A DNA stretch of 64,000 nt from Dehalococcoidia bacterium (GTDB taxonomy: Bacteria > Chloroflexota > Dehalococcoidia > SpSt-223): NCBI GenBank assembly GCA_025054935.1, contig JANWZD010000006.1, positions 24,228 through 88,227 of the forward strand. Direction: 5' to 3'. This document shows, one piece after another, positions 1-43,953 of the stretch. The notes beneath the pieces were generated by a model. The model searched no databases and had not been told where the DNA came from. It saw only the letters and a program-made list of their open reading frames with translations. A program made the position numbers and the translations under genes. Position 1 is the stretch's first letter. Every line of letters starts with the position of its first letter.

Positions 1-1029
1 ACGGACCGCTTCGTTCAACTTGCAATTGCGGCGGCGCGCCAAGCCGTCGACGATGCTGGCATCGAGGTGCGCGACCAGCCCGACATCGGCGCAATCGTCG
101 GCAGCGGCATCGGCGGAATCGCTACCCTCGCTGAGCAGATCCGCGTCCTCCACGAGCGCGGGCCAAGCCGCGTCAGTCCCTTCCTCGTACCGATGATGAT
201 CGTCGATATGGCGTCGGGGCAGGTCTCGATCCAGCTGGGATGCAAAGGCCCGAACTATGCCGTTGTTTCCGCCTGCGCAACGGGCGCGGATGCAATCGGC
301 GCCGCCTTTGAGACAATCCGGCGGGGCGATGCGCGGGCGATGATCGCCGGCGGCACCGAAGCGGCCATAACCCCTATCGGCATTGCGGGGTTCGCGGCCG
401 CCCGGGCACTGTCGACGCGCAACGACGACCCTCCCCGCGCCTCGCGCCCCTTCGACGCCGAACGTGACGGCTTCGTCATGGGAGAAGGAGCGGCCGTGCT
501 CGTCCTCGAGTCGCTCGAGTCTGCGCTGGCACGGGGGGCGAAGATCTACTGCGAACTCGCAGGCTACGCCGCAACTGCCGATGCCTACCATATCACCCAG
601 CCCTCCGAAGGAGGCGAGGGCGGCGTGCGAGCGATGCGCCAAGCTCTCCGTTCAGCTGGGCTGACCGCCGATGAGGTCGATTACATCAACGCCCACGGCA
701 CCTCCACCGAACTGAACGACAAGCTGGAGACCGTGGCGATTAAGACCGTGTTTGGGGAACGCGCCTACCAGATCCCCATCAGTTCCACGAAGTCGATGAC
801 TGGACATCTGCTGGGGGCTGCGGGGGCGTTTGAGGCCGTCGTCTGTGCCAAGACGATCGAGACCGGGTGGATCCATCCGACCATCAACCGGACAACGCCT
901 GACCCGGAGTGCGACCTCGATTATGTCGTGGAAGGAGCGCGTCAGGCGCGGGTGCGGGTGGCGCTCTCAAACTCGCTCGGTTTCGGCGGCCACAACGCAA
1001 CGCTTGTTTTCCGGGCGTTCGAGCAATAG
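1..1029 (+). CDS. fabF: beta-ketoacyl-[acyl-carrier-protein] synthase II, 5'-truncated by window edge (C-terminal ~340 aa present)
   Basis: Frame open from nt 1. Translation shows the KAS-II catalytic motifs [34 protein letters not shown] and [14 protein letters not shown]; stop at 1027-1029. Confidence 0.85.
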
Positions 1030-2164: not shown

Positions 2165-3074
2165 CCACGCTGCTGGCGATGGGCCGGCGACAGCACCGCC
2201 CACCGTGACGATCACTCACGCCGACCGGCTGCTCTGGCCAGCAGAGGCGATTACCAAGGGTGACCTCGCCGACTACTACCGCGAGGTGGCGCCGCTCCTG
2301 CTCCGCTATGCCGCCGGCCGCCCGGCAACGTTGGTCGTCTTTCCGCGCGGCCGGGACGGCCCTTCCTACTACCGACGGGATCGCCCGAGCGACGCCCCAG
2401 CGTGGATCGGCAGTGTCTCCTATTCCCGGCGCTCTGCGCCGACCTCATCCACCCTCATCCTCCTCGCGCACCCCAATGACCTCCTCTGGTTCGTCAATCG
2501 GGGCGCGATCGAGGTGCATCTTTGGATGGCGCGGCTTCCTGACCTTGAGCATCCGGATCAGCTGGTGTTCGACCTTGACCCTGGAGACGATGCGCCCTGG
2601 GAAGCCGTGCTCGAATGCGGACGGCTGCTTCACGCCCTGCTCTCAGCGGCTGGCATCGAAAGCGTCGCAAAGACCAGCGGCGGCCGCGGCCTGCACGTCT
2701 ATGTGCCGATTGCGCCGGGCCCCTCGTTCGAGGAGGTTCGCCAGTGGGCGAAGGCAGTCGCCGATCATCTCGCCGCGGCGCGGCCCGACCTTGTCTCCGT
2801 CAGCGGAGGCGCGACCCACCGCGGGCAGCGTGTCACCATCGATTATGCGCAGAACAGCATCGGCAAGAATATGGCCGCGCCCTACACCGTACGCGCTCGG
2901 CCGGGGGCGCCGGTCTCAACCCCCCTTACTTGGGAGGAGGTGCACGCCGGAGCGGTGCACCCCAGCCAATTTACCGTGCGGACGATCCGCGACCGACTTG
3001 CGCAGGTCGGCGACGTGTTCGCCGCTGCGCTCAGCGCGCACCAGCGCCTGCCGGCGCCACCGCCTCCACCGTGA
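2124..3074 (+). CDS. LigD-type primase-polymerase domain protein (NHEJ PolDom), standalone
   Basis: RGLHVYVPI and DYAQN motifs and overall similarity to the LigD polymerase domain. Start uncertain: ATG 2124 overlaps the upstream gene by 41 nt, and an in-frame GTG at 2205 is an alternative. No ligase, nuclease or Ku gene adjacent. Confidence 0.65.
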   Translation: MGRTTAAGDAGGSNHAAGDGPATAPPTVTITHADRLLWPAEAITKGDLADYYREVAPLLLRYAAGRPATLVVFPRGRDGPSYYRRDRPSDAPAWIGSVSYSRRSAPTSSTLILLAHPNDLLWFVNRGAIEVHLWMARLPDLEHPDQLVFDLDPGDDAPWEAVLECGRLLHALLSAAGIESVAKTSGGRGLHVYVPIAPGPSFEEVRQWAKAVADHLAAARPDLVSVSGGATHRGQRVTIDYAQNSIGKNMAAPYTVRARPGAPVSTPLTWEEVHAGAVHPSQFTVRTIRDRLAQVGDVFAAALSAHQRLPAPPPPP

Positions 3075-5046
3075 AGCCCGCCATATATCCCTCGTAGATT
3101 GCAAGCTGCAAGCGGCGCGGCGCCACGCAATCGCCGGCGGCGAGAACGGGCAGACCATCGGCAGCGAGGGCACGCGCGAGAGAGTCGTTCGCCCGGTAGC
3201 CCGTGTTCAGCACCACGGTATCGACACCCGTCAGCACCCTCGTGCGTTTGCCAGACACCGACTCGAGGCGGACGGTGGTGCCCTCGATCGCGGTGACGAG
3301 CGTGAGCGGCATCAGCTCGACGCCGGCCTCTTCCAAGTCGGCAATGACATAGGGAAACTCGGCGGTGAAGAGCAGGTCAGGCACGCCAATGTGAGGCGCA
3401 GAAGTGACAAGGGTCACGGCGCGATTGAGGCGGGCGAGGAAGAGCGCGATGCTTGCGCCGGGAGCATAGGCTTCTTCGTCATAGACTAGGACCCGCTGCC
3501 CGATTTGCTGGGGAAAGAGCAAGGCGTCCCAGCTTGTCAGCACGTTCGGCTGGTCGACACCCGGGATCGCGCCGCCGTGGGGACGGAGGGGACTGACACC
3601 GTTCCTGAGCGGGAACGATCCCGTTGCGACGACAATCGCATCTGCCTCGCGCAGAACCGGGTCGCGCGGCACAATCGTCCGGTTGAGCCGCACCGTGACC
3701 CCGCATTGCCGCAGCTGCCGCTCCTGCCATGCCGTGAACGCGGCGAGCCGTTCCCGATGAGGCGCGAGGGCAGCGATTGCAACTTGGCCGCCCAGCCGGT
3801 CGGTCGCTTCGTAGAGCGTCACGTCATGGCCGCGCAGCGCTGCCACGCGCGCCGCCTCCATGCCCGCAGGCCCGCCCCCGACCACAACGACGCGGCGCCG
3901 CTGGCCGTGGGGAACGAGCTGCTCGACCCCAATCGCTGCTTCGTACCCGAACGCAGGATTGACAACGCACTGCGTCTCTTTCCGCTGGTTCAGCCGCGCA
4001 ACGCAGTGATTGCAGAAGATGCATGGCCGAATGTCGTCGGCGCGGCCTTCGCGCGCTTTCCGCGTCCATTCGCCATCCGCGAGATGCTCGCGAGCAAGCG
4101 CCACGAGGTCGGCTTTTCCCTCGCGCACGATCCGCTCCGCGAGCGCGGGCGTGTCGATCTTGCCGGAGACATAGACGGGAAGGTCCACCGCCGCTTTGAT
4201 CCGCGCTGCGGCCGCAATCGCGTTGCCATCCGGAACGCGCATCCCCGGGATAACCTGCATCAAGTCGTAGTAGGAGCCGACCATCACGCCGAGATAGTCG
4301 ATGAGGCGGCTGCCGGCGACAAGCTGGCAGAACTCGACCGCTTCGTCAAGCGAGAACCCGTGCGGCATCTTGTGATCGGCGCTTGTCCGGATCCCGACCG
4401 TGAAGTCGGGGCCGACTTCGCGGCGGATCGCCGCCAAAATTTCCAAGATAATGCGGGCGCGATTCGTGAGTGGTCCGCCGTACTCATCCTCGCGGATATT
4501 GAGGGCCGGCGAGAGGAACGAGCCGAGGAGGTAGTCAACCGAGGTCTGGATGTCGACTGCGTCGAGCCCCGCCGCCTTGATATTGGCCGCCGTCCGCGCA
4601 TAGTGCTCGACAAGGTCATCGATCTGCGCTTTGGTGATCGCGATCGGCATCTCGCGATAGCTGCTCTGGATCGCCGACGGCGCCCACGACGGCTTGTAGG
4701 TCTCGGTCGACCAGGCGTTGTGGCCGATGTGGAGGATGATCGCCGAGATCACGCCGCCGTGACGGTGGACCACCTCAGCCTGCTGCGCCAGCCACTCGTT
4801 CGCCGAGCCGTCCCAGCCCCGGCGGCCGATCGGCGCGCGGGGCGAAGTGGAGGGATGGACCGGGGGAGCGTTCGTCATGATCCAGCCGACGCCCGCCCGC
4901 GCCCGCTCCGCAAGGTAGTCGAGCATCCGTTTGCCCGGCTCCTCCCAATCGACCAGCCCGACAAAGCCGTGAGGGGTCATCATAATCCGGTTAGGGACAC
5001 GCATCCGGCCCACCGTGATCGGCGTGAACAGCCGTTCGTAGAGCAT
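3031..5046 (-). CDS. NADH:flavin oxidoreductase of the 2,4-dienoyl-CoA reductase / NADH oxidase family (OYE-like TIM barrel + 4Fe-4S + FAD/NAD(P) domain)
   Basis: 671 aa. N-terminal OYE-like region, cysteine cluster (CIFCNHCV), and a C-terminal dinucleotide-binding motif VVVVGGGPAGMEAA. Its 3' end convergently overlaps the LigD-pol gene by 44 nt. Confidence 0.75.
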   Translation of the reverse strand: MLYERLFTPITVGRMRVPNRIMMTPHGFVGLVDWEEPGKRMLDYLAERARAGVGWIMTNAPPVHPSTSPRAPIGRRGWDGSANEWLAQQAEVVHRHGGVISAIILHIGHNAWSTETYKPSWAPSAIQSSYREMPIAITKAQIDDLVEHYARTAANIKAAGLDAVDIQTSVDYLLGSFLSPALNIREDEYGGPLTNRARIILEILAAIRREVGPDFTVGIRTSADHKMPHGFSLDEAVEFCQLVAGSRLIDYLGVMVGSYYDLMQVIPGMRVPDGNAIAAAARIKAAVDLPVYVSGKIDTPALAERIVREGKADLVALAREHLADGEWTRKAREGRADDIRPCIFCNHCVARLNQRKETQCVVNPAFGYEAAIGVEQLVPHGQRRRVVVVGGGPAGMEAARVAALRGHDVTLYEATDRLGGQVAIAALAPHRERLAAFTAWQERQLRQCGVTVRLNRTIVPRDPVLREADAIVVATGSFPLRNGVSPLRPHGGAIPGVDQPNVLTSWDALLFPQQIGQRVLVYDEEAYAPGASIALFLARLNRAVTLVTSAPHIGVPDLLFTAEFPYVIADLEEAGVELMPLTLVTAIEGTTVRLESVSGKRTRVLTGVDTVVLNTGYRANDSLARALAADGLPVLAAGDCVAPRRLQLAIYEGYMAGFTVEAVAPAGAGAR

Positions 5047-33492: not shown

Positions 33493-35268
33493 CTATGCCG
33501 GCCGTCGGGGAAGACGAGGCAAGCGGAGCCGGCTGACCATCCTGCCGCTCCCCCGCTGGCGGTCCTCAGCCGCTCCCGAGCGCCGCCGGGCCGCTCTGAC
33601 GATGAGGACGGCGAGCGCGACCGCAACGAGAAGTGCGCCGAGCTCTACGCGGGGGATGAAGAGGAAGACGCCGAGGAGGAGGAGCAGGAAGCGGCTGGCA
33701 GCGCCGAGCGGCGCGCGGGTTCCAAGCGCGAGGCCGACCGCCAGCGCCGCCGCGCCTTCGACGACGAGGATCAGGGCGGCATCGGGCCCCCGCTCGAGAA
33801 ATGCCGCACGCGTCGCCACAAGCGCTGCGAGCAGCAGCGGTATCGCCCAGACAATGCGGCCGAAGAGGGCGCGCGCTTTCCATCGTCCGGCGAGGACACT
33901 CGCTCCGCCAATCCAGAAGAGCGCCGCCACGATTGCGCCCGGCGGGTCGGGGAGCGCACCCCAGCTGATGAGAATGACAACGCCGACCGCCGCTGCCGGC
34001 AGGAACAGCAGTCCCGCTATCAGCGCGAGGAGGCTGAAGAGCAGCGCTTCCATCATGGGCGCAACGCTGAACCAGCGCTGGCCAAGCGCAGCCAGCAGCC
34101 CGCTCACCTCGTTCAGCCGCTCGACCAGAGCGAGGAAGAGCAGAAGCGCGCCCGCAAGCGGCACGTGCCGAGCCGCCCAGCCGAGGCCGGCGAGCAGGTC
34201 GCGCACAGTCGCCCACCGCGGCCGGGCGATCAGCGCGCCGCCGGCAGCAATCGCCGCCGCTGTTCCGAAACTGACCGCGGGGGAAAGCAGAGCGAGCAGG
34301 CCGAGCAGCGCGGCCGGCGCGGCAAGGACCATCGCTATCCCGAGCGTGGCCGGCGCGAGCGGCGGAAGGGCCGGGAGCGGCGGCGGCCAAACCCAGCGCC
34401 AGCGATCGGCGCGCCGCCGCCCGACGACGATCAGGAGAGCGAGCGCTGCCGGCGGCACGAGGCGCCACGCGATCTCTCCGACCCCGCCGAGCGCCTGCCC
34501 TGCGAGCAGCGCGCCGAGCCCAAGCGCAGGCGGGGTGAGCGGAAGCAGCGCGTACAGGGTCGGAAGGGCACCCGCGCCGGCACGGCCGTCCGGCGCGACG
34601 AGGAACGGCGCGCTGAGCGCCGTCGCCGCCGGCGCGGCGCCGTAGGGACGAAGGAGGGCAGCCAAGCGTGGAACAAGCCGCGCCCCCACCATGCTGCCGG
34701 CAAAGAGGACGATGGGCGCGACCCACTCGCTGAGCAGAGCGAACGACGAGGCGAAAAGCCCGCCCGCGCCGTAGAACAGCGCGGATGCCTCAGCGACAAG
34801 ATCGAGCGGGGCAGCGCGCAGCGGCTCGGGCAAGCGGTCGCGGAAGGCCAAGGCGGCGGTCCAGCCGACCACGCCAAGCAGCGCCGGCCAGCCTGCCGCG
34901 CGCCGCCCCGCTTCAGCAAGCGCAAGCAGGAACACAGCCGCCACCAGCGTGTCGGTCCAACTGGGCACGCCGCCGGCGCCGAGGCGGAGGAGCGCCTCAT
35001 GCCGATAGGCGAGAGCGCCGACAACCAGCGCCGCAAGCAGCAGGTCGAGGGGGGCGATCGCTCCGCGCTGACCGGTCGGTGCCGCAGCAAGGAACGTCGC
35101 CACGAGCGCCCCGCCGATAAGCACCGTCGGATCCTGCTCGCCCGCGAGGATCAGCAGCAAGAACCCGACCGCGCCAAGCGCGGCGAGCCAGCGTCCTGCC
35201 TTCCCCACGAGGCTGCTCTCTGCCGGAGGAGGCGGCTGCAAAGCCGGGAACGGGCGAACGCGACCCAT
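33493..35268 (-). CDS. polytopic membrane protein (Ala/Leu/Gly-rich; possible transporter permease, family unassigned)
   Basis: Very hydrophobic ~590 aa product. Start set at internal ATG 35268 (MGRVRPF...), because the track start 35436 would overlap the divergent cupin gene. Function unknown. Confidence 0.4.
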   Translation of the reverse strand: MGRVRPFPALQPPPPAESSLVGKAGRWLAALGAVGFLLLILAGEQDPTVLIGGALVATFLAAAPTGQRGAIAPLDLLLAALVVGALAYRHEALLRLGAGGVPSWTDTLVAAVFLLALAEAGRRAAGWPALLGVVGWTAALAFRDRLPEPLRAAPLDLVAEASALFYGAGGLFASSFALLSEWVAPIVLFAGSMVGARLVPRLAALLRPYGAAPAATALSAPFLVAPDGRAGAGALPTLYALLPLTPPALGLGALLAGQALGGVGEIAWRLVPPAALALLIVVGRRRADRWRWVWPPPLPALPPLAPATLGIAMVLAAPAALLGLLALLSPAVSFGTAAAIAAGGALIARPRWATVRDLLAGLGWAARHVPLAGALLLFLALVERLNEVSGLLAALGQRWFSVAPMMEALLFSLLALIAGLLFLPAAAVGVVILISWGALPDPPGAIVAALFWIGGASVLAGRWKARALFGRIVWAIPLLLAALVATRAAFLERGPDAALILVVEGAAALAVGLALGTRAPLGAASRFLLLLLGVFLFIPRVELGALLVAVALAVLIVRAARRRSGAAEDRQRGSGRMVSRLRLPRLPRRPA

Positions 35269-35352
35269 TGGCGGGATTATGCCGTTCCCCGCTCCCGCTC
35301 GTCGCCTGTTGACAGCGCGTGCCGCCGTCGGTAGCCTCCTCTCGGAGGCACG

Positions 35353-36120
35353 ATGACCCGCCCGCTGATCGATTTCATCCACGTTGACTCGCTGCCGTGG
35401 CAGCAAGAGCGCTCGCCGAGCGCCAATCAGCCTCACCGCTATCGGCGTCTCAGCGAAGACGAGGAAACGGGAGAGCAGACGCTGCTCGTCGAGCTTCCGG
35501 CCGGCTGGCGCATGACGGACGATGGGTGGCTCGACGTCGATGACGAACTGTTTCTTCTCGGCGGCGACCTCACGCTGAACGGCGAGCGCCTAACGAAGTA
35601 CAGCTATCTCTTCATCCCTGCCGGCCAGCTGCGGCGCGGTGTCCGGAGTGAGGGAGGAGCGCGCCTGCTTCAATTTCGACGCGCCGCCGCAGCCTTCCAC
35701 CCGGCAGCGGCGGACAGCCCCCAAGCTGACCTGACGCGAGCGATTGGCCCGCTCAATCTCCGAACGATGCCGTACGAGCGGCCCCAGACGCCCAACTTCC
35801 CTGCCGGAGCAGGCCGCAAGACGCTCCGACGCGACCCCGTGATGGGCGACGGCTTCTGGGTCATCGCGCTGCTGCCGCATTGGATCAGCCCGTTGACGGA
35901 GAAGCACACCTTCAGCGAGGAGAACTACGTCCTCGAAGGCGAGATCGAGACGAGCGTCGGCGTGATGACGCCCGGCGCCTATCTCCATCACCCGCCGGGG
36001 GCCGTTCATGGACCGATGCGCTCGCGGCCCGGCTGTCTCATCATCACGCGGGCGGGCGGGCCGTTCCACACCGACTACGAGCCTGTTTCCGGCGACTACG
36101 CCTTTCCGGAAGAAGTGTGA
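35353..36120 (+). CDS. cupin-fold protein (ChrR-like / DUF4437-like bicupin)
   Basis: ATG 35353 with GGAGG SD. Cupin-type motifs (GDLTLNGERL...YLFIPAG; GEIETSVG...HHPPGAVHGP). Its stop overlaps the next gene's start (TGATG). Confidence 0.5.
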   Translation: MTRPLIDFIHVDSLPWQQERSPSANQPHRYRRLSEDEETGEQTLLVELPAGWRMTDDGWLDVDDELFLLGGDLTLNGERLTKYSYLFIPAGQLRRGVRSEGGARLLQFRRAAAAFHPAAADSPQADLTRAIGPLNLRTMPYERPQTPNFPAGAGRKTLRRDPVMGDGFWVIALLPHWISPLTEKHTFSEENYVLEGEIETSVGVMTPGAYLHHPPGAVHGPMRSRPGCLIITRAGGPFHTDYEPVSGDYAFPEEV

Positions 36121-37064
36121 TGAACGCGGTCCGATTCGGGACGCGCCTCGAAATGGGGCTGCCGAACTACGAAGCGGTGCGCGACCATGCCCGGCTTGCC
36201 GAGCGGCTTGGCTACGAAGCGGTCTGGGCACGCGACCACGTCTCCCTAGAAGATGTCACCGGCGAAGCGACCTGTCTCGAGTGCTGGACCGTCCTCTCGG
36301 CGCTTGCCCGCGACACGACGTCGATCCTGCTCGGAAGCTTGGTCCTCTGCGTGCCCTTTCGGAATCCGGCGCTGCTCGCCAAGATGGCGTCGACCCTGCA
36401 GCTTGCGAGCAACGGACGGCTCATTCTCGGCCTCGGCGCTGGGCATGTCCGGTCTGAGTTCGACGAATACGGCTACGACTTTCCCTCGCCCGGCGACCGC
36501 GTGCGGATGCTCCAGGAGGCAGTCGAAATCATCCGGCTGATGTGGACGGAGCGGCGGCCGAGCTACAGAGGGCGGTTTTTTCGAATCGCCAACGCGCTGA
36601 ACGAGCCGAAGCCGACCCCGATCCCGCCGCTCATGATCGGCGCGACCCGACCGCGCGCCCTGCGCGTTGTCGCCCGCCACGCCGACCTGTGGAACAGCCC
36701 CGACGATATCGAGGGTTTTCTCGCCGGCCGCGAAGAACTGCTGCGCGCTTGCGAGGAAGTCGGACGCGATCCTGCCGAGATCCGCATGGTCGCCCGCCTC
36801 TCCGTCATCGTCGACCGAGACGAGGCAGCCGCCAAACGCCGCCATGAGCGGGTGTGTGAGGCGCGCACAGGGCAGCCGTACTTGCGCCATCGCATTCTCG
36901 TTGGCACGCCGGAGCAGATTGCCGAGCGGGTGGCCCCCCTCGTCGCTGGCGGCGTGCGCGACTTCATCACCGCTTTCTGGGAGACCGACCGCCAAGCCGA
37001 GTGCCTCGAACAGTTCATGACCGAGGTTGCGCCCCTCATCCGCCAGCACGCTGCCGCCCGATAG
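36120..37064 (+). CDS. LLM-class flavin/F420-dependent oxidoreductase
   Basis: ATG 36120 (MNAVRFGT). The track's longer in-frame ORF from 35880 is an artefactual extension. Signatures LGYEAVWARDH and LILGLGAGH. Confidence 0.7.
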   Translation: MNAVRFGTRLEMGLPNYEAVRDHARLAERLGYEAVWARDHVSLEDVTGEATCLECWTVLSALARDTTSILLGSLVLCVPFRNPALLAKMASTLQLASNGRLILGLGAGHVRSEFDEYGYDFPSPGDRVRMLQEAVEIIRLMWTERRPSYRGRFFRIANALNEPKPTPIPPLMIGATRPRALRVVARHADLWNSPDDIEGFLAGREELLRACEEVGRDPAEIRMVARLSVIVDRDEAAAKRRHERVCEARTGQPYLRHRILVGTPEQIAERVAPLVAGGVRDFITAFWETDRQAECLEQFMTEVAPLIRQHAAAR

Positions 37065-37135
37065 CAGCTGCGAATACTTTACACCGCACGTTCCGCGGAG
37101 TAGAGTGAGCAGCAAAGAAGGGAAATGGGGGAACG

Positions 37136-37540
37136 ATGAGAAGCATAGCACGGCTTCGGCTGGAAGCGCTGAGCGCATTTGCGCGCCTGCTGCGCTCGTT
37201 TAGCGACCACGGCCTCGGGGCGCTGGAACGAGCCGCGCGCGACGCTCGGCTGGTCCGGGGCGTCTGGTCCGCTGCGGACGCCGGGTGTCCGCTCTCCTGC
37301 GCCGATGGCGTGCTGGGACGGAGCGGCGCGCGGCGCTTCTTCTGGCAGGCTCACGACCGCAACCGTTTTGTCACCGCGTGGGACGCCGGGCTTGTCTCCG
37401 CTGCCGACGTGGCGGCGCTCGTCCAGCTCGAGCGCGAGCGGCGAGCGCGCGCTTGGCAGCGGCGAGCGCGCATCCGGTCCCTTGCCCGCCGCCTTGCTGA
37501 ACGCTTCAGCCCTGCGCCCTCACCACCGGCACACGCCTAG
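37136..37540 (+). CDS. hypothetical protein (Arg/Ala-rich; doubtful)
   Basis: 134 aa ORF with a weak SD and no recognisable domain. May be non-coding or part of a decayed gene region. Confidence 0.2.
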   Translation: MRSIARLRLEALSAFARLLRSFSDHGLGALERAARDARLVRGVWSAADAGCPLSCADGVLGRSGARRFFWQAHDRNRFVTAWDAGLVSAADVAALVQLERERRARAWQRRARIRSLARRLAERFSPAPSPPAHA

Positions 37541-37928: not shown

Positions 37929-39188
37929 CTAGAACGCCGGCTGGTTGATGCCGGCAATCAGCCGCGCCGCATACTCCAGCAGCACGTTCCGCCGCGCTTC
38001 TTCCACTCCTCGTGCCTTGAGATACAGTTCCAGCGCCTCGAGGGGGGCGAGCTGCTCGGCGAGCACGTCGGGCAGAGCGTGTGCCGGCGCGGACTCGACG
38101 ATGCGGGCGATCGCGGCGACATAGTGCGCCTCGCGGAGCGCGCGACGGACATCGGCGACGCGAAACTGGCGCTCGTTCTCACTCGACAACCGCACGCGGA
38201 CGCGCACCACGGCTTCTTGGATCTGGTCAGCGTGCTGCTCGATCTGCTTGAGCACGAGGCGGGTCGGATCATCGGCCTGCGAGGCGTCGACGCTGAGGGT
38301 GAAAAACCGGCGCGCGGCCGCGCTCGGCACGAACCGCCAGCGCACGGTATAGGGACGGTCGCCCGCCGAGTGAGGCTCGAAGCTGAGGCGGAGGAACCCC
38401 TTCTCCTCGCCCTCCTCGCTGAAGTCGGCGCGCTGGAGCGACCCGGGGTAGATCGCCGGGGGATGGTCGTGCACCTGCTGCATCTTATGGATATGCCCGA
38501 GCGCAACATAGTCAAAATGGGTGAGGCAGAGATCGCCGAGGGAAAGGATGTAGTCGTGGCCGAGGGTCGTTGCGCGTTCGGAGCCGAAGGTCGCGCCGTA
38601 GACCTGAGCATGGATGGCGAGGATCGAGGGGAGGCGCGGATCGAGGTCGGCCACCCGGAGCCGAACGAACTCCGTCAGTTTCTGCACTAGGCGCTGGTTC
38701 AGTTCGTCAAGAGTAAGGTTCCTCGCCTCGTCCTGCCGGAGGAGACGGCTGCGCGGCGCCCACGGCAGGGCGAGGACCTGCACCGGGCCGGCCTTTGTTT
38801 CAATCCGGAGCAGGGTGGGGCGGCCCGCGACATAGACGCTCGTGAGCGGCAGCGCCTCGAACACTTCGATGGAATGGGCGCGCACGGGCGAATTGGGGAG
38901 ATCATGATTGCCCACCAGCATGAACAGGGGCACGCCCTCGCGACAGAGCCGAGCGATCCGCTTGGCCAGCTCGCGCTGATGCGTTGGGCTGGGGTCGCGG
39001 CTCTTATACATATCGCCAGTGAAGAGCACAAGATCGACCTGCTCCTCCAGCGCCGTGTTGACGACTTCGTCGAGCGCTCTCAGGCAATCGACAAGACGGC
39101 TAGGAAGCCCGGTGTCAGTATCTATCCGGCTGTAGTTTTCGAGCCCAAGATGGACATCGGAAAAATGCAGGACCTCTAGCCGGCGCAT
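37929..39188 (-). CDS. sbcD: Mre11/SbcD-family DNA repair exonuclease (calcineurin-like metallophosphoesterase)
   Basis: Phosphoesterase motifs [19 protein letters not shown] and GNHD in the N-terminal half; 419 aa. Start overlaps the glyQS 3' end by 13 nt. No sbcC-like ATPase gene adjacent. Confidence 0.7.
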
Positions 39189-40537
39189 GCTGCCGCCTTC
39201 TCTGCCAGAAGTCCTTCGAGGGTCGGGACAAGCTCGGCGATCGGGACGCGGATTTGCGCCATCGTATCGCGGTCGCGAATGGTCACCGCCTGGTCGTTTA
39301 CGGTCTCGAAGTCGACGGTGACGCAGAACGGCGTCCCGATCTCGTCCTGGCGCCGATAGCGGCGGCCGATCGCCTGCGTGTCGTCATACTGGACCGTCCA
39401 ATGGCGGGCGAGATCCCGCCGAATGCGCCGCGCGATGTCGGTCAGCGGCTCCTTTCTGCTCAAGGGCAAGACGGCAACTTTGACCGGCGCCAGCACCGGA
39501 TGAAGCCGCAGCACAACGCGGACCCCTTCTTTGTCAGGCTCTTCATCGTAGGCATCCACTAGAGCCACGAGCACGCCACGGTCCACCCCAGCTGACGGTT
39601 CGATGACGTAGGGGAAGTAATGCTCGTTCGTCTCCTCATCGAAATAGGTGAGGTTCTTCCCGCTGAACTCGCTATGACGGCGCAGGTCGTAGTCTGTCCG
39701 ATTCGCGATCCCCTCGATCTCACCCCATCCTTTTGAGAGCCAGCCATCGGGAAAGCGATATTCGATGTCGCTTGTCGCTTTGGAATAGTGGGAGAGCTCA
39801 TTCGGTTCGTGAGCGCGAACGCGGAGATTTTCGCGGCGGATCCCGATCGAGTAGTACCAGGCAAGGCGATCTTCGATCCAGCGGCGGTGCCACTCTTCGT
39901 CGGTGCCCGGCTTGACGAAATACTCAACCTCCATCTGCTCAAACTCGCGCACCCGAAAGAACGACTTGCCGATCGTAATCTCGTTGCGGAACGCCTTGCC
40001 GTACTGACCGATGCCGAAGGGTAATTTGCGCCGCATCGCGCTGCGCACATTTTCGAAGTTGACGAAGATCCCTTGCGCTGTCTCAGGCCGAAGATAGACC
40101 TTATAGCCGCTCTCCTGGATCGGGCCGATCGTCGTCTCGAACATCAAGTTGAAGTTGCGCGCTTCGGTGAACTGGTTCGGGCAGGGAGGCTGGGGACAGA
40201 CCCGCTCATCGAGCTGGTCAGCGCGGAACCGCTGGCGGCACTTGAGGCAATCGACAAGCGGGTCGGTGAAATTCTCAACGTGACCGCTCGCTTCCCAGAC
40301 GCGCGGATGCATCAGAATGGCGGAGTCGAGGCCGACCACGTCGTCGCGCTCCTGGATGACGGCGCGCCACCACGCTTCCTTATAGTTGCGCTTCAGCTCG
40401 GCGCCGAGCGGCCCGAAATCCCAGACGCCACCTAGGCCGCCGTAAATCTCGCTACTCTGGAAGACAAACCCGCGGCGCTTACAGAGCGAAACAAATTTGT
40501 CGATATCAAGCGGCGTCGTGGATACGCGCGGGATCAT
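39176..40537 (-). CDS. glyQS: glycine--tRNA ligase (alpha2 homodimeric type)
   Basis: Start at ATG 40537 ([34 protein letters not shown]) with SD GAGGAG. The track ORF from 40828 is an upstream extension. Class II aaRS motifs throughout. Confidence 0.9.
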
Positions 40538-40747
40538 GTTCTCCTCATCAGTCGGCGGGTGGGTCACCGCGAAGTATACCTGCTCTCCGTGCAGCCGAAC
40601 TGCCCGCAGCGCTCGAGAATACTTCGGCCGAGGCGAAAAGGTAGACCCGGCTAGGCCGCACCCGCTACAGTTCCGGTGCAGGGCTCGCAGCGCAGTGCAG
40701 GCTGCGGCCGGTCCACCGTCAGGCACTCTCCATCGCGAGGAGGCGTA

Positions 40748-42373
40748 ATGCCTTCGGCTCGAAAGCACTCTTTTTTCCTCATCGTTGCCGCGGCAGCCGT
40801 TGCCCTTGCTGGCTGCCTTCTCCCTCAAACCGGCGGGGGGCGCTCTCCAGAAAGTTCACCTCCTCCCCGTGGCGGCAGCTTTGTCCGCGTGAATCCTTCC
40901 GACGGCTCAACGATGAACCCCCTCTTGGCCTCCGACAGTTATTCGCGCGGCTACGCGGAGATGGTGTACAACGCTCCCTTGCTGCGCATGAACCCGGAGA
41001 CGCTCGAGTGGGACACCAAGGATGGCGCTGCCGAGTCGTTCGAACTGTCGCCAGACGGCCTGATCATTCGCTATCGACTGAAGCCGAACCTGCAGTGGAG
41101 CGATGGCACGCCGATTACGTCGGCTGATTATCTCTTCACCTTCGAAAAGATGCTCGACCCCGCTGTGGACTATCCGTTTCGAGCAAACCTCGCCTTCATC
41201 GCCGGCGCGCGAGCGCCCGACCCGCGAACGATCGAGTTCACCTTCCGCGAGCCGTTCTGCCCCGCAATCGAATACACCAACATCAATCCGATCCCGAAGC
41301 ATATTTTCGAGCATCTCAACATCAACGATAACCCCGAAAACCTGCGCCCGACAGTCGGTTCGGGGCCGTGGCTGCTGCGCGAGTGGGTGCGCGACAGCCA
41401 TGCGACGTTTGTTGCGAATGAGAAGTTCTATCTCGGGCGGCCCTATCTCGACACCTACACCATCCGGATCGTACGAACGAGCGCCGTCGCCTTCTCTCTG
41501 CTTAAGAACGGAGAGGTCGACCAAGTCAGCTTGCGTCCTGACGAATGGGAAGAGGCGAAGCGGCTTCCCCACGTTACCACGATCAGCTTCTATCCCGCCG
41601 GATCGAGCTGGGTCTACATCGGCTTCAACCTCCGCAGCCCGCTGGTCAGCGACCTCCGGGTCCGCCAAGCGTTCGCGGCCGCAGTGCCGCGTCAGGAGAT
41701 GATTGAGCGCATTCGCCTCGGGCGCGCCCGGCTGATTAACTCGATCTACGGCCCGAGCTCGTGGGCGCACGACCCGACGCTGCAGGGCATCGACTATGAC
41801 CCGGAGCGCGCCCGCCGCCTCCTCGACGAGGCAGGGTGGCGCACCCCGCCGGGCAACCCGAGCGGCATCCGCCAGAAAGACGGCCGCGAACTGAAGCTCC
41901 GCCTCTTCTACAACGTCAGCAACCGCGATGCCGAACAGGTTGCGGTCATCACCCAGGCAGCGCTGCGCCAGATCGGCGTCGACCTGCAGGTGATCGGCGA
42001 AGAGCTGAGCACGCTGCTCAATCGGACAAACCGCACTCGCGACCTCGAAATGTGGGTGAATACGTGGATCTCGCCGATTGAGCCGCACAGCCGCTTCAAT
42101 GCGTGGAAGAGCAGCGACAATGCCACCGGCTTCGCTGACCCGGTGGTCGACGAACTGTTCGCCCGCGCAGCTTCTGTTCCCGGGTGCAAGATCGCCGACC
42201 GCGCGCCGATCTACCATGAGATTCAGCGCCGCATTGCCGCCGAAGTGCCCTACATTTTCCTCTGGGAGATCGAACTGCTGTACGGGGTGAACAACCGGAT
42301 CGTGACGAACCCGGTGACCAGCCTCGGTTTCTGGTATCGCGAGTGGGAGTGGTACTCGAAGACGGGGAAATAA
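40748..42373 (+). CDS. ABC transporter substrate-binding protein, family 5 (peptide/nickel/oligosaccharide type), lipoprotein
   Basis: ATG 40748 with SD GAGGAGG. Signal peptide plus lipobox (VALAGC). SBP_bac_5 architecture. No permease or ATPase genes adjacent, so it is an orphan SBP. Confidence 0.8.
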
Positions 42374-42952
42374 TCAGAGCGTGCCCGCCTTCAGGCGGTC
42401 AATCGCCTCGGACGCTTGCCGCTTCGTCATCTCTGCCGGCGGCCGGCCGTAGAGCGCGCGGATCCGCTCGTCGACCTCGCTCTCGCTCAAGCGATGCTCG
42501 TTGCGGCCGATGACGTAGATCGCTTTCACCTGCGCCGGCGTCGCCCGCTGCCTCTCATCGTCGGAGCGGGCGCGGCCGCGCAGCGGCGTCGGCGGGATCT
42601 CTTCCGCGAGCGGCTCAGCATCCTCGGGCGGCAGCTCCTCAAACGCGACCGTCGCTACGTTAATCGCGTCGCGCAGCGCGCGCGCTTTGGCGCGGGTCTC
42701 CGCCATCCGAACAAGACAGGTGCGCATCGGCGCCGCGACGTTGTTTGGGGCAGCATCTCCGATGCCGGAGTAGGTCCCCGTATCAAGCTCGACCGTCGCC
42801 CGCACGATCGCCGTCTGTCCGTTCTCCTCACGCGGCGCTTGGAGGAGCTCCGTGCGGATGCTGCGCAGACCTCGCTGGTGCGCTTCGTCAAGCAGCCCAG
42901 CGTAGAGAACGAAGGTTTTCCCCTGCCGCTCGATAATGTACTCCTTCTTCAT
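42374..42952 (-). CDS. hypothetical protein with ERF/Rad52-like single-strand-annealing features, putatively LexA-regulated
   Basis: Start placed at ATG 42952 (MKKEYIIERQGK...) with SD GGGGAGGG, rather than ATG 42985, which lies inside the SOS-box palindrome. The segment MRTCLVRMAETRAKARALRDAINV resembles the conserved helix of ERF/Rad52-family SSAPs. Function unverified. Confidence 0.5.
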   Translation of the reverse strand: MKKEYIIERQGKTFVLYAGLLDEAHQRGLRSIRTELLQAPREENGQTAIVRATVELDTGTYSGIGDAAPNNVAAPMRTCLVRMAETRAKARALRDAINVATVAFEELPPEDAEPLAEEIPPTPLRGRARSDDERQRATPAQVKAIYVIGRNEHRLSESEVDERIRALYGRPPAEMTKRQASEAIDRLKAGTL

Positions 42953-42978
42953 CGCGCCCTCCCCTGCGCCCTCAGATA

Positions 42979-42992
42979 TGAACATTTGTTCG
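42979..42992 (-). promoter_or_regulatory. candidate LexA (Cheo-box type) operator CGAACAAATGTTCA at the 5' end of the ERF-like gene
   Basis: Minus-strand sequence CGAACAAATGTTCA matches the Gram-positive/Chloroflexi SOS-box consensus CGAAC-N4-GTTC(G/A). It sits ~25 nt upstream of the SD-preceded ATG 42952, in an AT-richer patch. Confidence 0.45.
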
Positions 42993-43269
42993 AATTCTAG
43001 CCCGCTCCTGCGCTCTCGTCAAGCCAGCGCGTTCCGGCCGCGACCGTTGCCGCCCGACGCGGTCTTCTCCACCATCCACAGCACGCGGAAGCGCGAACCG
43101 AGTAGACTGGGAGTTGGAGGTTTGAGATGCGCATCCCTCTTCCGGTTCTCCTCTCCCCGGACGAGCGCGAGGCGCGGAAGGGGCACGGTCTGCGGTTTAC
43201 AGCGGCCTCTCCGGCCGCAGCGCTCGTCATCAGGCGCGGGCGGGACGAAGACCTGCCGCGAGGCGAGGC

Positions 43270-43953
43270 ATGATCCCGGTCGGCGACGAGAACGAGCATC
43301 ACGGCCCCGCAGTCGTTACGCTGACCTTGATCGGGTTGAACCTTGCGGCGTTCTTCCTTCAGCTGCTGTTCGGCACGCCGTTTACCTATGCGTTCAGCTT
43401 CATTCCTGCCGAACTCACCCTCTTCCTTCTCGGGCGGGCCCCAAGCGAGGTGCTTATCACGCTCTTCACCGCAATGTTTCTTCACGCGAGCCTCGGCCAT
43501 CTTTTGGGAAATCTCCTCTTTCTTTGGGTCTTCGGCGATAACGTCGAGCATCGTCTCGGGTCGTTCCTGTTCCTCGTCTTCTATGTTGTCTGCGGCCTCG
43601 CCGCCACCTTCACCCAGTACTTGACCGACCCGACATCCACCATTCCGAACCTCGGGGCGAGCGGCGCGATCTCGGGTGTCCTCGGCGCCTACTTCGTGCT
43701 CTTTCCCGCCAACCTAGTCCGGGTGTTCATCTGGCCGTTCTCACTCTTCCTCGGCACTGTCCCCATCCCGGCGCTCGTTATGCTCGGGCTCTGGTTCCTT
43801 CTTCAGCTGTGGGGCGGAGTGAGCGAGTTCGGCCAGCTGAGCACGGGGGGCGTCGCCTTCTGGGCGCATGTCGGCGGTTTTGTCGCTGGCATGGTGCTTG
43901 GCATGCCGTTCCGCGGCCGACGGCGACGCTCCCTCCCCTACCCGCCCTTCTGA
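43270..43953 (+). CDS. rhomboid family intramembrane serine protease
   Basis: 227 aa with 6-7 TM segments. Catalytic GASGAISG (Ser) and a downstream His in the last TM (AHVGGF). Confidence 0.85.
   Translation: MIPVGDENEHHGPAVVTLTLIGLNLAAFFLQLLFGTPFTYAFSFIPAELTLFLLGRAPSEVLITLFTAMFLHASLGHLLGNLLFLWVFGDNVEHRLGSFLFLVFYVVCGLAATFTQYLTDPTSTIPNLGASGAISGVLGAYFVLFPANLVRVFIWPFSLFLGTVPIPALVMLGLWFLLQLWGGVSEFGQLSTGGVAFWAHVGGFVAGMVLGMPFRGRRRRSLPYPPF

Follow-up and report, generated by a model that had tools for sequence, protein, structure and literature searches.

A 64,000-nucleotide stretch of a Dehalococcoidia bacterium genome (assembly GCA_025054935.1, contig JANWZD010000006.1, positions 24,228 to 88,227, further referred to as the window) was analyzed, and a minus-strand gene for a 192-amino-acid protein, a member of the Slr1353_N family (PF27148), was found to carry the palindrome CGAACAAATGTTCA over its expected transcription start. 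The palindrome is of the Cheo type (GAAC-N4-GTTC) and was taken as a putative operator of the SOS repressor LexA, and the N-terminal domain of the protein was predicted to adopt the fold of the Rad52 superfamily of single-strand annealing proteins (SSAPs). It was proposed that the gene encodes a stand-alone chromosomal, LexA-controlled Rad52-fold annealase or end-protection factor, a combined reading that we regard as an even call. A new SOS-regulated Rad52-fold family is plausible.

The coding sequence (42374..42952, minus strand) ran from the ATG at 42952-42950 to the TGA at 42376-42374 and comprised 192 codons and a stop, in agreement with the protein of about 190 residues announced by the first-pass annotation, which had been made from the sequence alone. 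The promoter scan placed a -35 hexamer TTGACG at 43017..43022 and a -10 hexamer TAGAAT at 42994..42999 of the same strand, with 10 of 12 matches and a 17-nt spacer. This was the sole sigma-70-like promoter match within 42200-43400, where 0.2 would be expected. By direct reading, the -10 hexamer was followed by one T and then, from 42992, by the palindrome (42979..42992, minus strand), so that two nucleotides (TAGAAT-tc-GAAC) separated the hexamer from the G of GAAC. The SOS-type box that had been noted on the minus strand over a presumptive promoter was thus read at exactly that place, one base 3' of the predicted promoter.

The ATG that opens the mechanically called open reading frame (ORF), at 42985-42983, fell inside the 4-nt spacer of the palindrome, as the first-pass annotation had stated. 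It was ruled out as the start, since homologues start at MKKE. All 36 aligned homologues began at the MKKE/VKRE position, and therefore the ATG at 42952, located 27 nt 3' of the palindrome, was taken as the true start. It was preceded, at a distance of 4 nt, by the Shine-Dalgarno sequence GGGGAGGG (42957..42964, minus strand; direct reading), and the earlier preference for this start with its ribosome-binding site was thereby borne out. The same elements were seen at the orthologue loci, namely TTGACA-type -35 boxes and GGAGG-like sequences at the equivalent places, and a TAGAAT, TAAAAT or TATCAT hexamer just 5' of the box in the loci L001-L017. The 317-nt intergenic region gave no Rfam match and contained no longer inverted repeat, and an RNA element in this region was rejected on these grounds.

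The loose pattern CGAAC-N4-GTTC was matched twice in the window against 0.63 matches expected, and 15 of 100 shuffled sequences reached two, which was not significant by itself. Further, 20 sites of the family, 19 from orthologues and the box of the window, were combined into a 16-nt matrix. When applied to the 64-kb window, it returned a single match of at least 12 bits, which was the CGAACAAATGTTCA box with 22.3 bits; in 780 kb of orthologue loci, four other matches of at least 13 bits were recorded, none of them beside a recognisable repair gene. The second CGAAC-N4-GTTC of the window (CGAACGGCTGTTC, 5026-5038) lay over the first codons of the minus-strand ORF 3031-5046. It had a GC-rich spacer and a score under the matrix threshold, and was treated as a probable chance occurrence and not as an operator.

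The conservation of the box was assessed by scanning one genome per GTDB species, which gave 355 loci encoding a relative, and the best 80 of the 355 were taken for the upstream comparison. The exact GAAC-N4-GTTC occurred 30 times in the 780 kb, with 19 sites within 150 nt upstream of an orthologue (19 of the 80 loci) and 11 elsewhere, in about 760 kb of background. Thirty loci were counted as Chloroflexota, being labelled Chloroflexota, Chloroflexi, Dehalococcoidia, Chloroflexia or Thermobaculum, and 28 of them had a GAAC-N4-GTTC box or a palindrome derived from it upstream of the orthologue, mostly right 3' of the -10 hexamer. The exact core was present in 17 loci; a further seven differed by one mismatch at the same place (AGATC-N4-GTTC in L004-L007; also L016, L023 and L064), and four carried symmetric or near-symmetric variants (CGCACATATGTGCT in L019 and L021, CGCACAAACGTGCG in L041 and CGTACAAATGTGCT in L060) of the forms CGCAC-N4-GTGCG/T and CGTAC-N4-GTGCT. 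No box was found in two of the 30 loci (L018 and L053).

In most Chloroflexota loci, the palindrome was located 1-8 nt 3' of a TTGACA-16/17-TAnnAT promoter, and the three closest relatives (L001-L003, ~70-79% protein identity) reproduced the TAGAAT/TAAAAT-NN-GAAC arrangement exactly. Cultivable relatives are, for example, Thermobaculum or a Chloroflexia isolate carrying TAGAACAAATGTTCT. A chance origin of the box is untenable because of its conservation upstream of the orthologues. The flanking genes varied: a solute-binding protein (SBP) gene and a rhomboid gene in the window, methyltransferase and YfhO genes in L083, and a gene of no assigned product and an enoyl-CoA hydratase gene in L085. 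Since the neighbours differed among the examined loci while the box stayed, the operator was assigned to the gene of the 192-aa protein and not to the rhomboid gene.

According to Erill and colleagues (PMC4951493), LexA of Firmicutes and Actinobacteria has GAAC-N4-GTTC as its established motif, and variants are reported from Cyanobacteria and from Chloroflexi, the latter with reference to a Dehalococcoides study. Here, such a palindrome was found in a promoter region, it covered the expected transcription start of the predicted promoter, and it was conserved upstream of orthologues. Judging from motif identity, operator position and conservation, LexA is probably the protein that binds CGAACAAATGTTCA.

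The geometry of the site was compared with that of lexA genes themselves. Metagenomes were scanned for a pattern in which a Cheo box precedes, with appropriate spacing, the LexA motifs GDSM and TVKR. The scan yielded 120 lexA loci (L166-L285), which served as a control of geometry only, the position of the box being fixed by the search pattern and that of the promoter being free. The promoter TTGnnn-16..18-TAnnnT ended 2-3 nt before the G of GAAC in 59 of 112 lexA promoters, and the 2-nt gap seen in the window was the commonest arrangement. The loci that could be identified came from Solirubrobacterales/Actinomycetota (the largest cluster), Acidimicrobiales, Enterocloster (Firmicutes), CSP1-3 and Myxococcota; none of the 120 was assignable to Chloroflexota. 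Among these loci (L224, L280, L237, L210 and 108 others), high-GC Actinomycetota lexA promoters had CGAAC-N4-GTTCG 1-2 nt after the -10 hexamer in about half of the cases. Such a stereotyped arrangement of autoregulated promoters could serve as a template for searches. With E. coli LexA and RecA as tblastn queries, no cellular lexA or recA was found in the window or in the orthologue loci, and the only LexA-like and RecA-like genes lay on viral contigs.

In one sublineage (L019, L021, L041, L060 and L023; metagenome-assembled genomes of Dehalococcoidia/Chloroflexota), altered half-sites were observed directly 3' of the -10 hexamer. GAAC/GTTC was changed symmetrically to GCAC/GTGC, for example in the CGCACAAACGTGCG site of L041, and near-symmetrically in L019 and L021, with L023 and L060 as mixed intermediates. 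To judge from the sites, these changes look like co-evolution of a dimeric repressor and its operator. In the Rubrobacterales loci (L028-L077) a distinct inverted repeat, CTCACT-N4/5-TCAGTGAAGA, was conserved; it lay about 45-65 nt 5' of the gene and had a T-run before it (for example, L063 5930-5960). These loci also shared a conserved upstream gene ending in ...YTYERIA, the L063 copy of which encoded 202 amino acids. The repeat could be either the operator of another regulator or a hairpin of the 5' untranslated region.

It was also considered that the palindrome of the window might not be a LexA site. It would then serve a different dimeric regulator as operator, or have arisen by chance or as a structural feature, and the gene would stand outside the SOS response. 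Such a reading would be consistent with the canonical SOS genes of the lineage being absent from the examined DNA, with the loose pattern being not significant in the window, with Dehalococcoides LexA having been reported to bind few promoters, and with the altered half-sites (GATC, GCAC, GTAC) of some lineages and the quite different palindrome of Rubrobacterales. However, its core does not differ from the LexA motif established for neighbouring phyla, Chloroflexi variants of which have been reported, the position was conserved in 28 of the 30 Chloroflexota loci, and the site covers the -10/+1 region as in the 59 of 112 lexA promoters. Moreover, the half-sites changed symmetrically in L041 and nearly so in L019 and L021, as a co-evolving dimeric repressor would lead one to expect. 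A regulator other than LexA, or no regulator, was thus held to be improbable.

The family of the 192-aa protein was large, with 4,262 matches in a 90%-clustered collection and 4,136 representatives at 50% identity with E ≤1e-3, of which 1,019 had E ≤1e-30. Its precomputed label was the Pfam domain entry PF27148 'Slr1353_N', and a literature search found no functional description of either PF27148 or slr1353. Local sequence searches of Pfam, NCBIfam and PDB returned nothing for the N-terminal domain, and the sole PHROGs match was the unannotated phrog_22961. Both the single protein and sets of 37 or 32 family members served as queries against Pfam, NCBIfam and PHROGs, and apart from phrog_22961 these gave only weak DUF3072 and GemA matches, to the C-terminal domain.

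Three parts were distinguished in the protein. The N-terminal domain (aa 1-107; 42632..42952, minus strand) was a Rad52/SSAP-like core composed of a beta-hairpin, a helix, a three-stranded sheet and a long basic helix (RMAETRAKARALRDAINV). In the family alignment it contained the invariant helix RMAETRAKARALRDAxNV and a GxGDA loop; R82, R87 and R91 were invariant, and R94 nearly so. It was followed by an acidic, proline-rich linker (aa 108-136; 42545..42631, minus strand), which differed in length and sequence among homologues; the score of the predicted local distance difference test (pLDDT) was below 50 at residues 102-119 and 123-128. The C-terminal domain (aa 137-192, ATPAQVKAIY...TKRQASEAIDRLK; 42377..42544, minus strand) was DUF3072/GemA-like and conserved in the alignment as ATPAQVxAIY...KRQASExI. 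Longer relatives gave weak matches there to DUF3072 (E = 9e-7) and to GemA of phage Mu (E = 3e-5). The model described below had three helices over residues 139-189 with a pLDDT of ~95, which agrees with the C-terminal helical tail proposed earlier. In viral, Rubrobacter and Chthonomonadales members this domain was swapped or lost.

An AlphaFold2 model was built from the family alignment and had a mean pLDDT of 81.6. The elements followed in the order beta-beta-alpha-beta-beta-beta-long alpha: strands 6-9 and 12-15 formed a hairpin (pLDDT 59-67 over residues 1-20), which was followed by helix 17-26, strands 31-38, 48-56 and 59-67, and a 32-residue helix 74-105. The pLDDT of the core was 89-97, and residues 102-128 were disordered. 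The model therefore contained the three-stranded antiparallel sheet crossed by a long helix that characterizes the Rad52 superfamily (PMC11783212).

The fold was compared with those of known structures. The double-stranded RNA-binding domain (dsRBD) obtained a score of 7.6 over 70 residues at 2.9 Å and ribosomal protein S5 one of 7.4 over 71-94 residues at 5.5-15.9 Å. RAD52 scored 7.4 and 7.3 over 100-101 residues at about 16 Å, hence with no single rigid superposition, and was followed by Sak (6.6, 88 residues, 3.0 Å), the Red-beta N-terminal domain (6.3, 91 residues, 2.9 Å) and Mgm101 (6.1, 90 residues, 3.2 Å). The C-terminal helices matched the C-terminal domain of Red-beta (8tfu) with a score of 6.3 over 58 residues at 2.2 Å. 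The matches to SSAPs spanned ~90-100 residues with the hairpin included and those to dsRBDs ~65-78; the SSAP alignments were thus about 20 residues longer, consistent with the hairpin being matched, a hairpin modelled at pLDDT 59-67. The Rad52 core is itself classed as dsRBD-like, and matches to dsRBDs are therefore expected.

In the study by Al-Fatlawi et al. (PMC11783212), some 20 additional aligned residues together with the order of elements are treated as the signature of the Rad52 superfamily, and the SSAP architecture is described as an N-terminal core, a linker and a variable C-terminal domain. The 192-aa protein had this layout in the model, with the core at aa 1-107 and, beyond a disordered linker, a C-terminal domain of three helices that stood apart from it. 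In the Foldseek search of PDB, RAD52 came first (5xs0, E = 4e-4; 5xrz, E = 1.6e-3), ahead of the dsRBDs. The comparison with Rad52-type folds that had been suggested for the protein thus returned RAD52 as the best Foldseek match among solved structures. The Foldseek search of BFVD, a collection of predicted viral structures, gave 71 matches with E <1e-3. The two best were family members, among them ORF018 of Bacillus phage 0305phi8-36. The other named ones among the 50 matches listed were all annealing proteins ('DNA single-strand annealing protein', RecT family, three SAK3, two ERF, Rad52/59/22 and 'DNA repair protein'), except for one protein with a PDDEXK-exonuclease domain.

Homologues were carried by three isolated phages, phiT1, API480 and 0305phi8-36 (ORF018). 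The gene of Rossellomorea phage phiT1 (gp34, L081 4992-5645) was annotated as 'DNA repair and recombination protein' and lay between a regulator and a replicative helicase gene. Gene 49 of Paenibacillus phage API480 was located between a Mu-Gam-like gene (PF07352) and a single-stranded DNA-binding protein (SSB) gene, upstream of primase and Pol I genes; the lactococcal phage p2 shows the same order, Sak3 and then SSB. In IMG/VR, 77 contigs encoded the N-terminal domain at 31-64% identity, most of them without the present C-terminal domain. The 147 viral neighbour genes on 70 contigs were dominated by helicases, DnaB, DnaD-like loaders and primases; two SSB, two exonuclease and one Gam gene were among them, as were SbcD-like proteins. 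The phage members thus sat in replication/recombination modules, but no exonuclease-SSAP pair dominated.

In two phage members (L126 from IMG/VR and phiT1 gp34, L081) the last residues were ...DDDLPF and ...EDKPPF, which resemble the acidic C-terminal tip by which bacterial SSB recruits partner proteins. One viral or mobile-element contig (L106, IMG/VR UViG 3300028837_004134) encoded a full-length LexA homologue of 219 aa (1585-2244), with 35% identity to the E. coli protein. It lay 2.7 kb 5' of the family member of the contig (4977-5540), with no Cheo box nearby. In Rubrobacter taiwanensis (L079 4503-7477, NZ_SKBU01000020), a second paralogue stood directly after genes for a DnaD-like protein and a DnaC/IstB-like AAA+ loader and preceded a metallo-beta-lactamase/ComEC-like gene, the neighbours being identified by motif with no family scan. 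The arrangement resembles a replication/helicase-loading module, and the end of the upstream gene was common to L052, L066, L067 and L080.

A Cheo box near the gene was seen in one of the 77 viral loci, in phiT1, at -144 and upstream of the promoter of the phiT1 gene. Because 28 of the 30 Chloroflexota loci carry the box against this single viral one, the operator looks like an acquisition by the host. Its absence from viral loci would also be expected if the viral hosts use other LexA motifs.

The context of the gene in the window was chromosomal and not that of a prophage. The convergent neighbour was an ABC family-5 SBP gene (40676-42373), the stop codon of which abutted that of the present gene at 42373/42374 with zero intergenic bases; an intrinsic terminator was detected for neither gene. 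The divergent neighbour was a rhomboid gene (43270-43953, PF01694). The scanned nearby genes were housekeeping or metabolic ones (SbcD-like phosphoesterase, DUF2269, DUF4015, subtilase, glycoside hydrolase family 2 and CoA-transferase, with a glycyl-tRNA synthetase recognized by sequence). No phage gene was found among the scanned flanking genes of the window, no tRNA gene in its 64 kb and no anomaly of base composition over 36-50 kb, and the GC content at third codon positions (GC3) of the gene, 0.80, was like that of its neighbours and typical of the genes of the window. The position between an SBP and a rhomboid gene, outside any prophage, was accordingly as the first-pass annotation had described it.

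An inert leftover of a phage recombination module, retaining a LexA-sensitive phage promoter and having no function in the host, would account for the N-terminal domain on the 77 IMG/VR contigs and in the three isolated phages, and for the Cheo box located 144 nt upstream of the phiT1 homologue. It was nonetheless considered very improbable. The relatives occupied 355 loci across GTDB species representatives and about 4,100 clusters at 50% identity, with full-length conservation and many invariant residues. Base composition and GC3 were native, the examined flanks had neither phage genes nor tRNA while their housekeeping neighbours varied, and the wiring, with the operator at 1 of 77 viral against 28 of 30 Chloroflexota loci, looks host-acquired.

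Several observations weigh against the proposal of a LexA-controlled annealase. No lexA, recA or uvrA gene lay in the window or in the orthologue loci, so that membership of the regulon rests on motif identity and position. The orthologues of Rubrobacterales and Chthonomonadales had no Cheo box, and SOS control is therefore not universal for the family. The beta-hairpin, which separates SSAPs from dsRBDs, was modelled at a pLDDT of 59-67 only. No similarity to Rad52_Rad22, ERF, RecT or Sak was detected at the level of sequence in Pfam, PDB or hhalign comparisons. None of 37 family members matched Pfam (Rad52_Rad22, ERF, RecT, SSAP_Sak) even at E values up to 10, the PDB profile search found no SSAP, and hhalign against Sak3 of phage p2 alone and against a 20-sequence Sak alignment gave probabilities of 0.1-0.4% and no link. 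For human RAD52 (query sequence checked to be identical to 1KN0), the top hhalign alignment had a non-significant probability of 0.35%. Finally, no exonuclease partner gene was adjacent in the window. The link to SSAPs, as modelled, is at the level of the fold only.

The non-significant RAD52 alignment was topologically as expected, and paired residues 31-98 of the family with 87-160 of RAD52 strand for strand, RMAETRAKARALRDAIN being placed over KEAVTDGLKRALRSFGN, R91 over R153 and R94 over R156. In RAD52, K152, R153 and R156 are ssDNA-binding residues. The pairing may serve as a lead, not as a test. The helix 'ETRAKARALRDA' had earlier been likened to the conserved helix of ERF/Rad52-type SSAPs; it did align onto the RAD52 helix, while statistical significance for the likeness was not obtained.

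It was further considered that the operator and the damage control are real and that the protein is a dsRBD-like nucleic-acid binder with another role in damage, such as protecting ends, loading or restarting the replicative helicase, binding RNA or duplexes, or regulating through the GemA/DUF3072-like domain. The want of any sequence link to an SSAP family in Pfam, PDB and hhalign would suit such a protein, as would the R. taiwanensis paralogue directly after the DnaD-like and DnaC/IstB-like loader genes, the viral neighbourhoods, in which helicases, loaders and primases were commoner than exonuclease-SSB pairs, and the C-terminal domain, which is like GemA of phage Mu and unlike known SSAP tails. 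The structural comparisons speak for an annealase instead, with the ~90-100 residues, hairpin included, of the SSAP matches against ~65-78 of the dsRBD matches, RAD52 in first place among solved structures in Foldseek, and named viral neighbours (50 listed) that were SSAPs bar the PDDEXK-domain protein. The API480 homologue between Gam and SSB, and the SSB-like tips of some phage members, which point to transactions of single-stranded DNA (ssDNA), favour it as well. A non-annealase was on balance regarded as rather unlikely, and an SSAP-type function of the 192-aa protein was somewhat favoured on the basis of the model.

For the LexA-controlled annealase, the following sequence of events was proposed. 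In undamaged cells, a LexA dimer bound to CGAACAAATGTTCA would occlude the -10/+1 region and so keep RNA polymerase away from it. Upon DNA damage, RecA-stimulated self-cleavage of LexA would open the promoter and allow synthesis of the 192-aa protein. Its N-terminal domain of the Rad52-superfamily annealase fold would most likely bind ssDNA through the conserved basic helix (R82, R87, K89, R91, R94) and the beta-hairpin. The protein could then oligomerise and either anneal complementary strands or protect 3' ends at resected breaks or gaps, while the flexible linker and the small helical domain at the C-terminus would bring in a partner specific to the lineage, a task that C-terminal regions have in other SSAPs.

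The protein resembles the SSAPs of the Rad52 superfamily (Rad52/Mgm101, Sak/Sak3, ERF, Red-beta/RecT) in the predicted hairpin and three-stranded sheet crossed by a long basic helix, in an N-terminal annealing-type domain joined by a flexible linker to a C-terminal domain that is small and variable, and in phage members that sit in replication/recombination modules, once beside SSB and Gam. It differs from the curated families in that sequence homology is not detectable, the core is shorter (~105 aa), the C-terminal domain is DUF3072/GemA-like, and the gene mostly stands singly on cellular chromosomes with no adjacent exonuclease gene. The fold core also matched the dsRBD, an alpha-beta3-alpha domain of 65-70 aa, and the N-terminal domain of ribosomal S5, from which the protein is set apart by the additional N-terminal hairpin, the 32-residue C-terminal helix and the lack of a Pfam dsrm match; the genomic associations of the family are, unlike those of dsRBDs, with the metabolism of DNA and not of RNA.

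Bacterial SSAPs are seen mainly as phage or prophage proteins, DdrA of Deinococcus being the notable cellular exception. DdrA is a damage-induced Rad52-family protein which matches Pfam Rad52_Rad22 and is controlled by DdrO/PprI via the radiation/desiccation response motif (RDRM). The 192-aa protein would be similar as a chromosomal, non-phage protein of predicted Rad52 fold with expression tied, as proposed here, to DNA damage, and its family also occurs in the radiation- and desiccation-tolerant Rubrobacterales. Unlike DdrA, it gave no match to PF04098 (Rad52_Rad22) and has a Cheo-type box in place of the RDRM of DdrO/PprI. With the Cheo-box LexA/DinR regulons of Firmicutes, Actinobacteria and Chloroflexi it shares the core palindrome, the AT-rich spacer and the overlap with -10/+1 as at lexA, but the regulated gene lies outside the usual set of lexA, recA, uvrAB, dinB and imuAB-dnaE2.

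To our knowledge, little has been charted of the SOS regulons of bacteria other than Proteobacteria, Firmicutes and Actinobacteria, and almost nothing is known for Chloroflexota. In the literature search, neither an SSAP-like chromosomal gene belonging to a LexA regulon nor the function of the family was found to be described. The claim of an undescribed SOS component stood in the sense that no report of a LexA-controlled cellular SSAP was found, but not for the family itself, which is already in Pfam as PF27148. In general, structure-based screens have brought up thousands of SSAP-like proteins that lack an annotation. It is suggested, with more doubt than for the single gene, that Slr1353_N might belong, by vertical inheritance, to the core of the LexA regulon across Chloroflexota. 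It would then be the first SSAP-type protein of cells, as opposed to prophages, to be controlled directly by the SOS system.

If so, a Rad52-fold protein wired to LexA throughout the phylum would be a new effector of the bacterial DNA-damage response, and a function would be assigned to a domain family with thousands of members. Break repair in Chloroflexota would include a branch, induced by damage, for strand annealing or end protection, with relatives in Rubrobacterales under a different operator. The 14-bp operator and the 192-aa protein make up an easily testable system, and the family could be a source of compact annealases for recombineering in hosts that are thermophilic or have a high GC content. 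The GAAC/GTTC to GCAC/GTGC variants would offer a natural case for studying the co-evolution of repressor and operator.

Some further features were observed in the neighbourhood. An SbcD/Mre11-like phosphoesterase gene (PF00149) lay ~3 kb away from the gene of the 192-aa protein and shared 13 nt with the 3' end of the ORF upstream of it (37929-39188 and 39176-40828 for the pair). This upstream ORF resembled glycyl-tRNA synthetase by sequence, with no family scan. Downstream of the phosphoesterase gene, large ORFs at 33493-37178 were devoid of Pfam matches and had coding-like GC3 on both strands.

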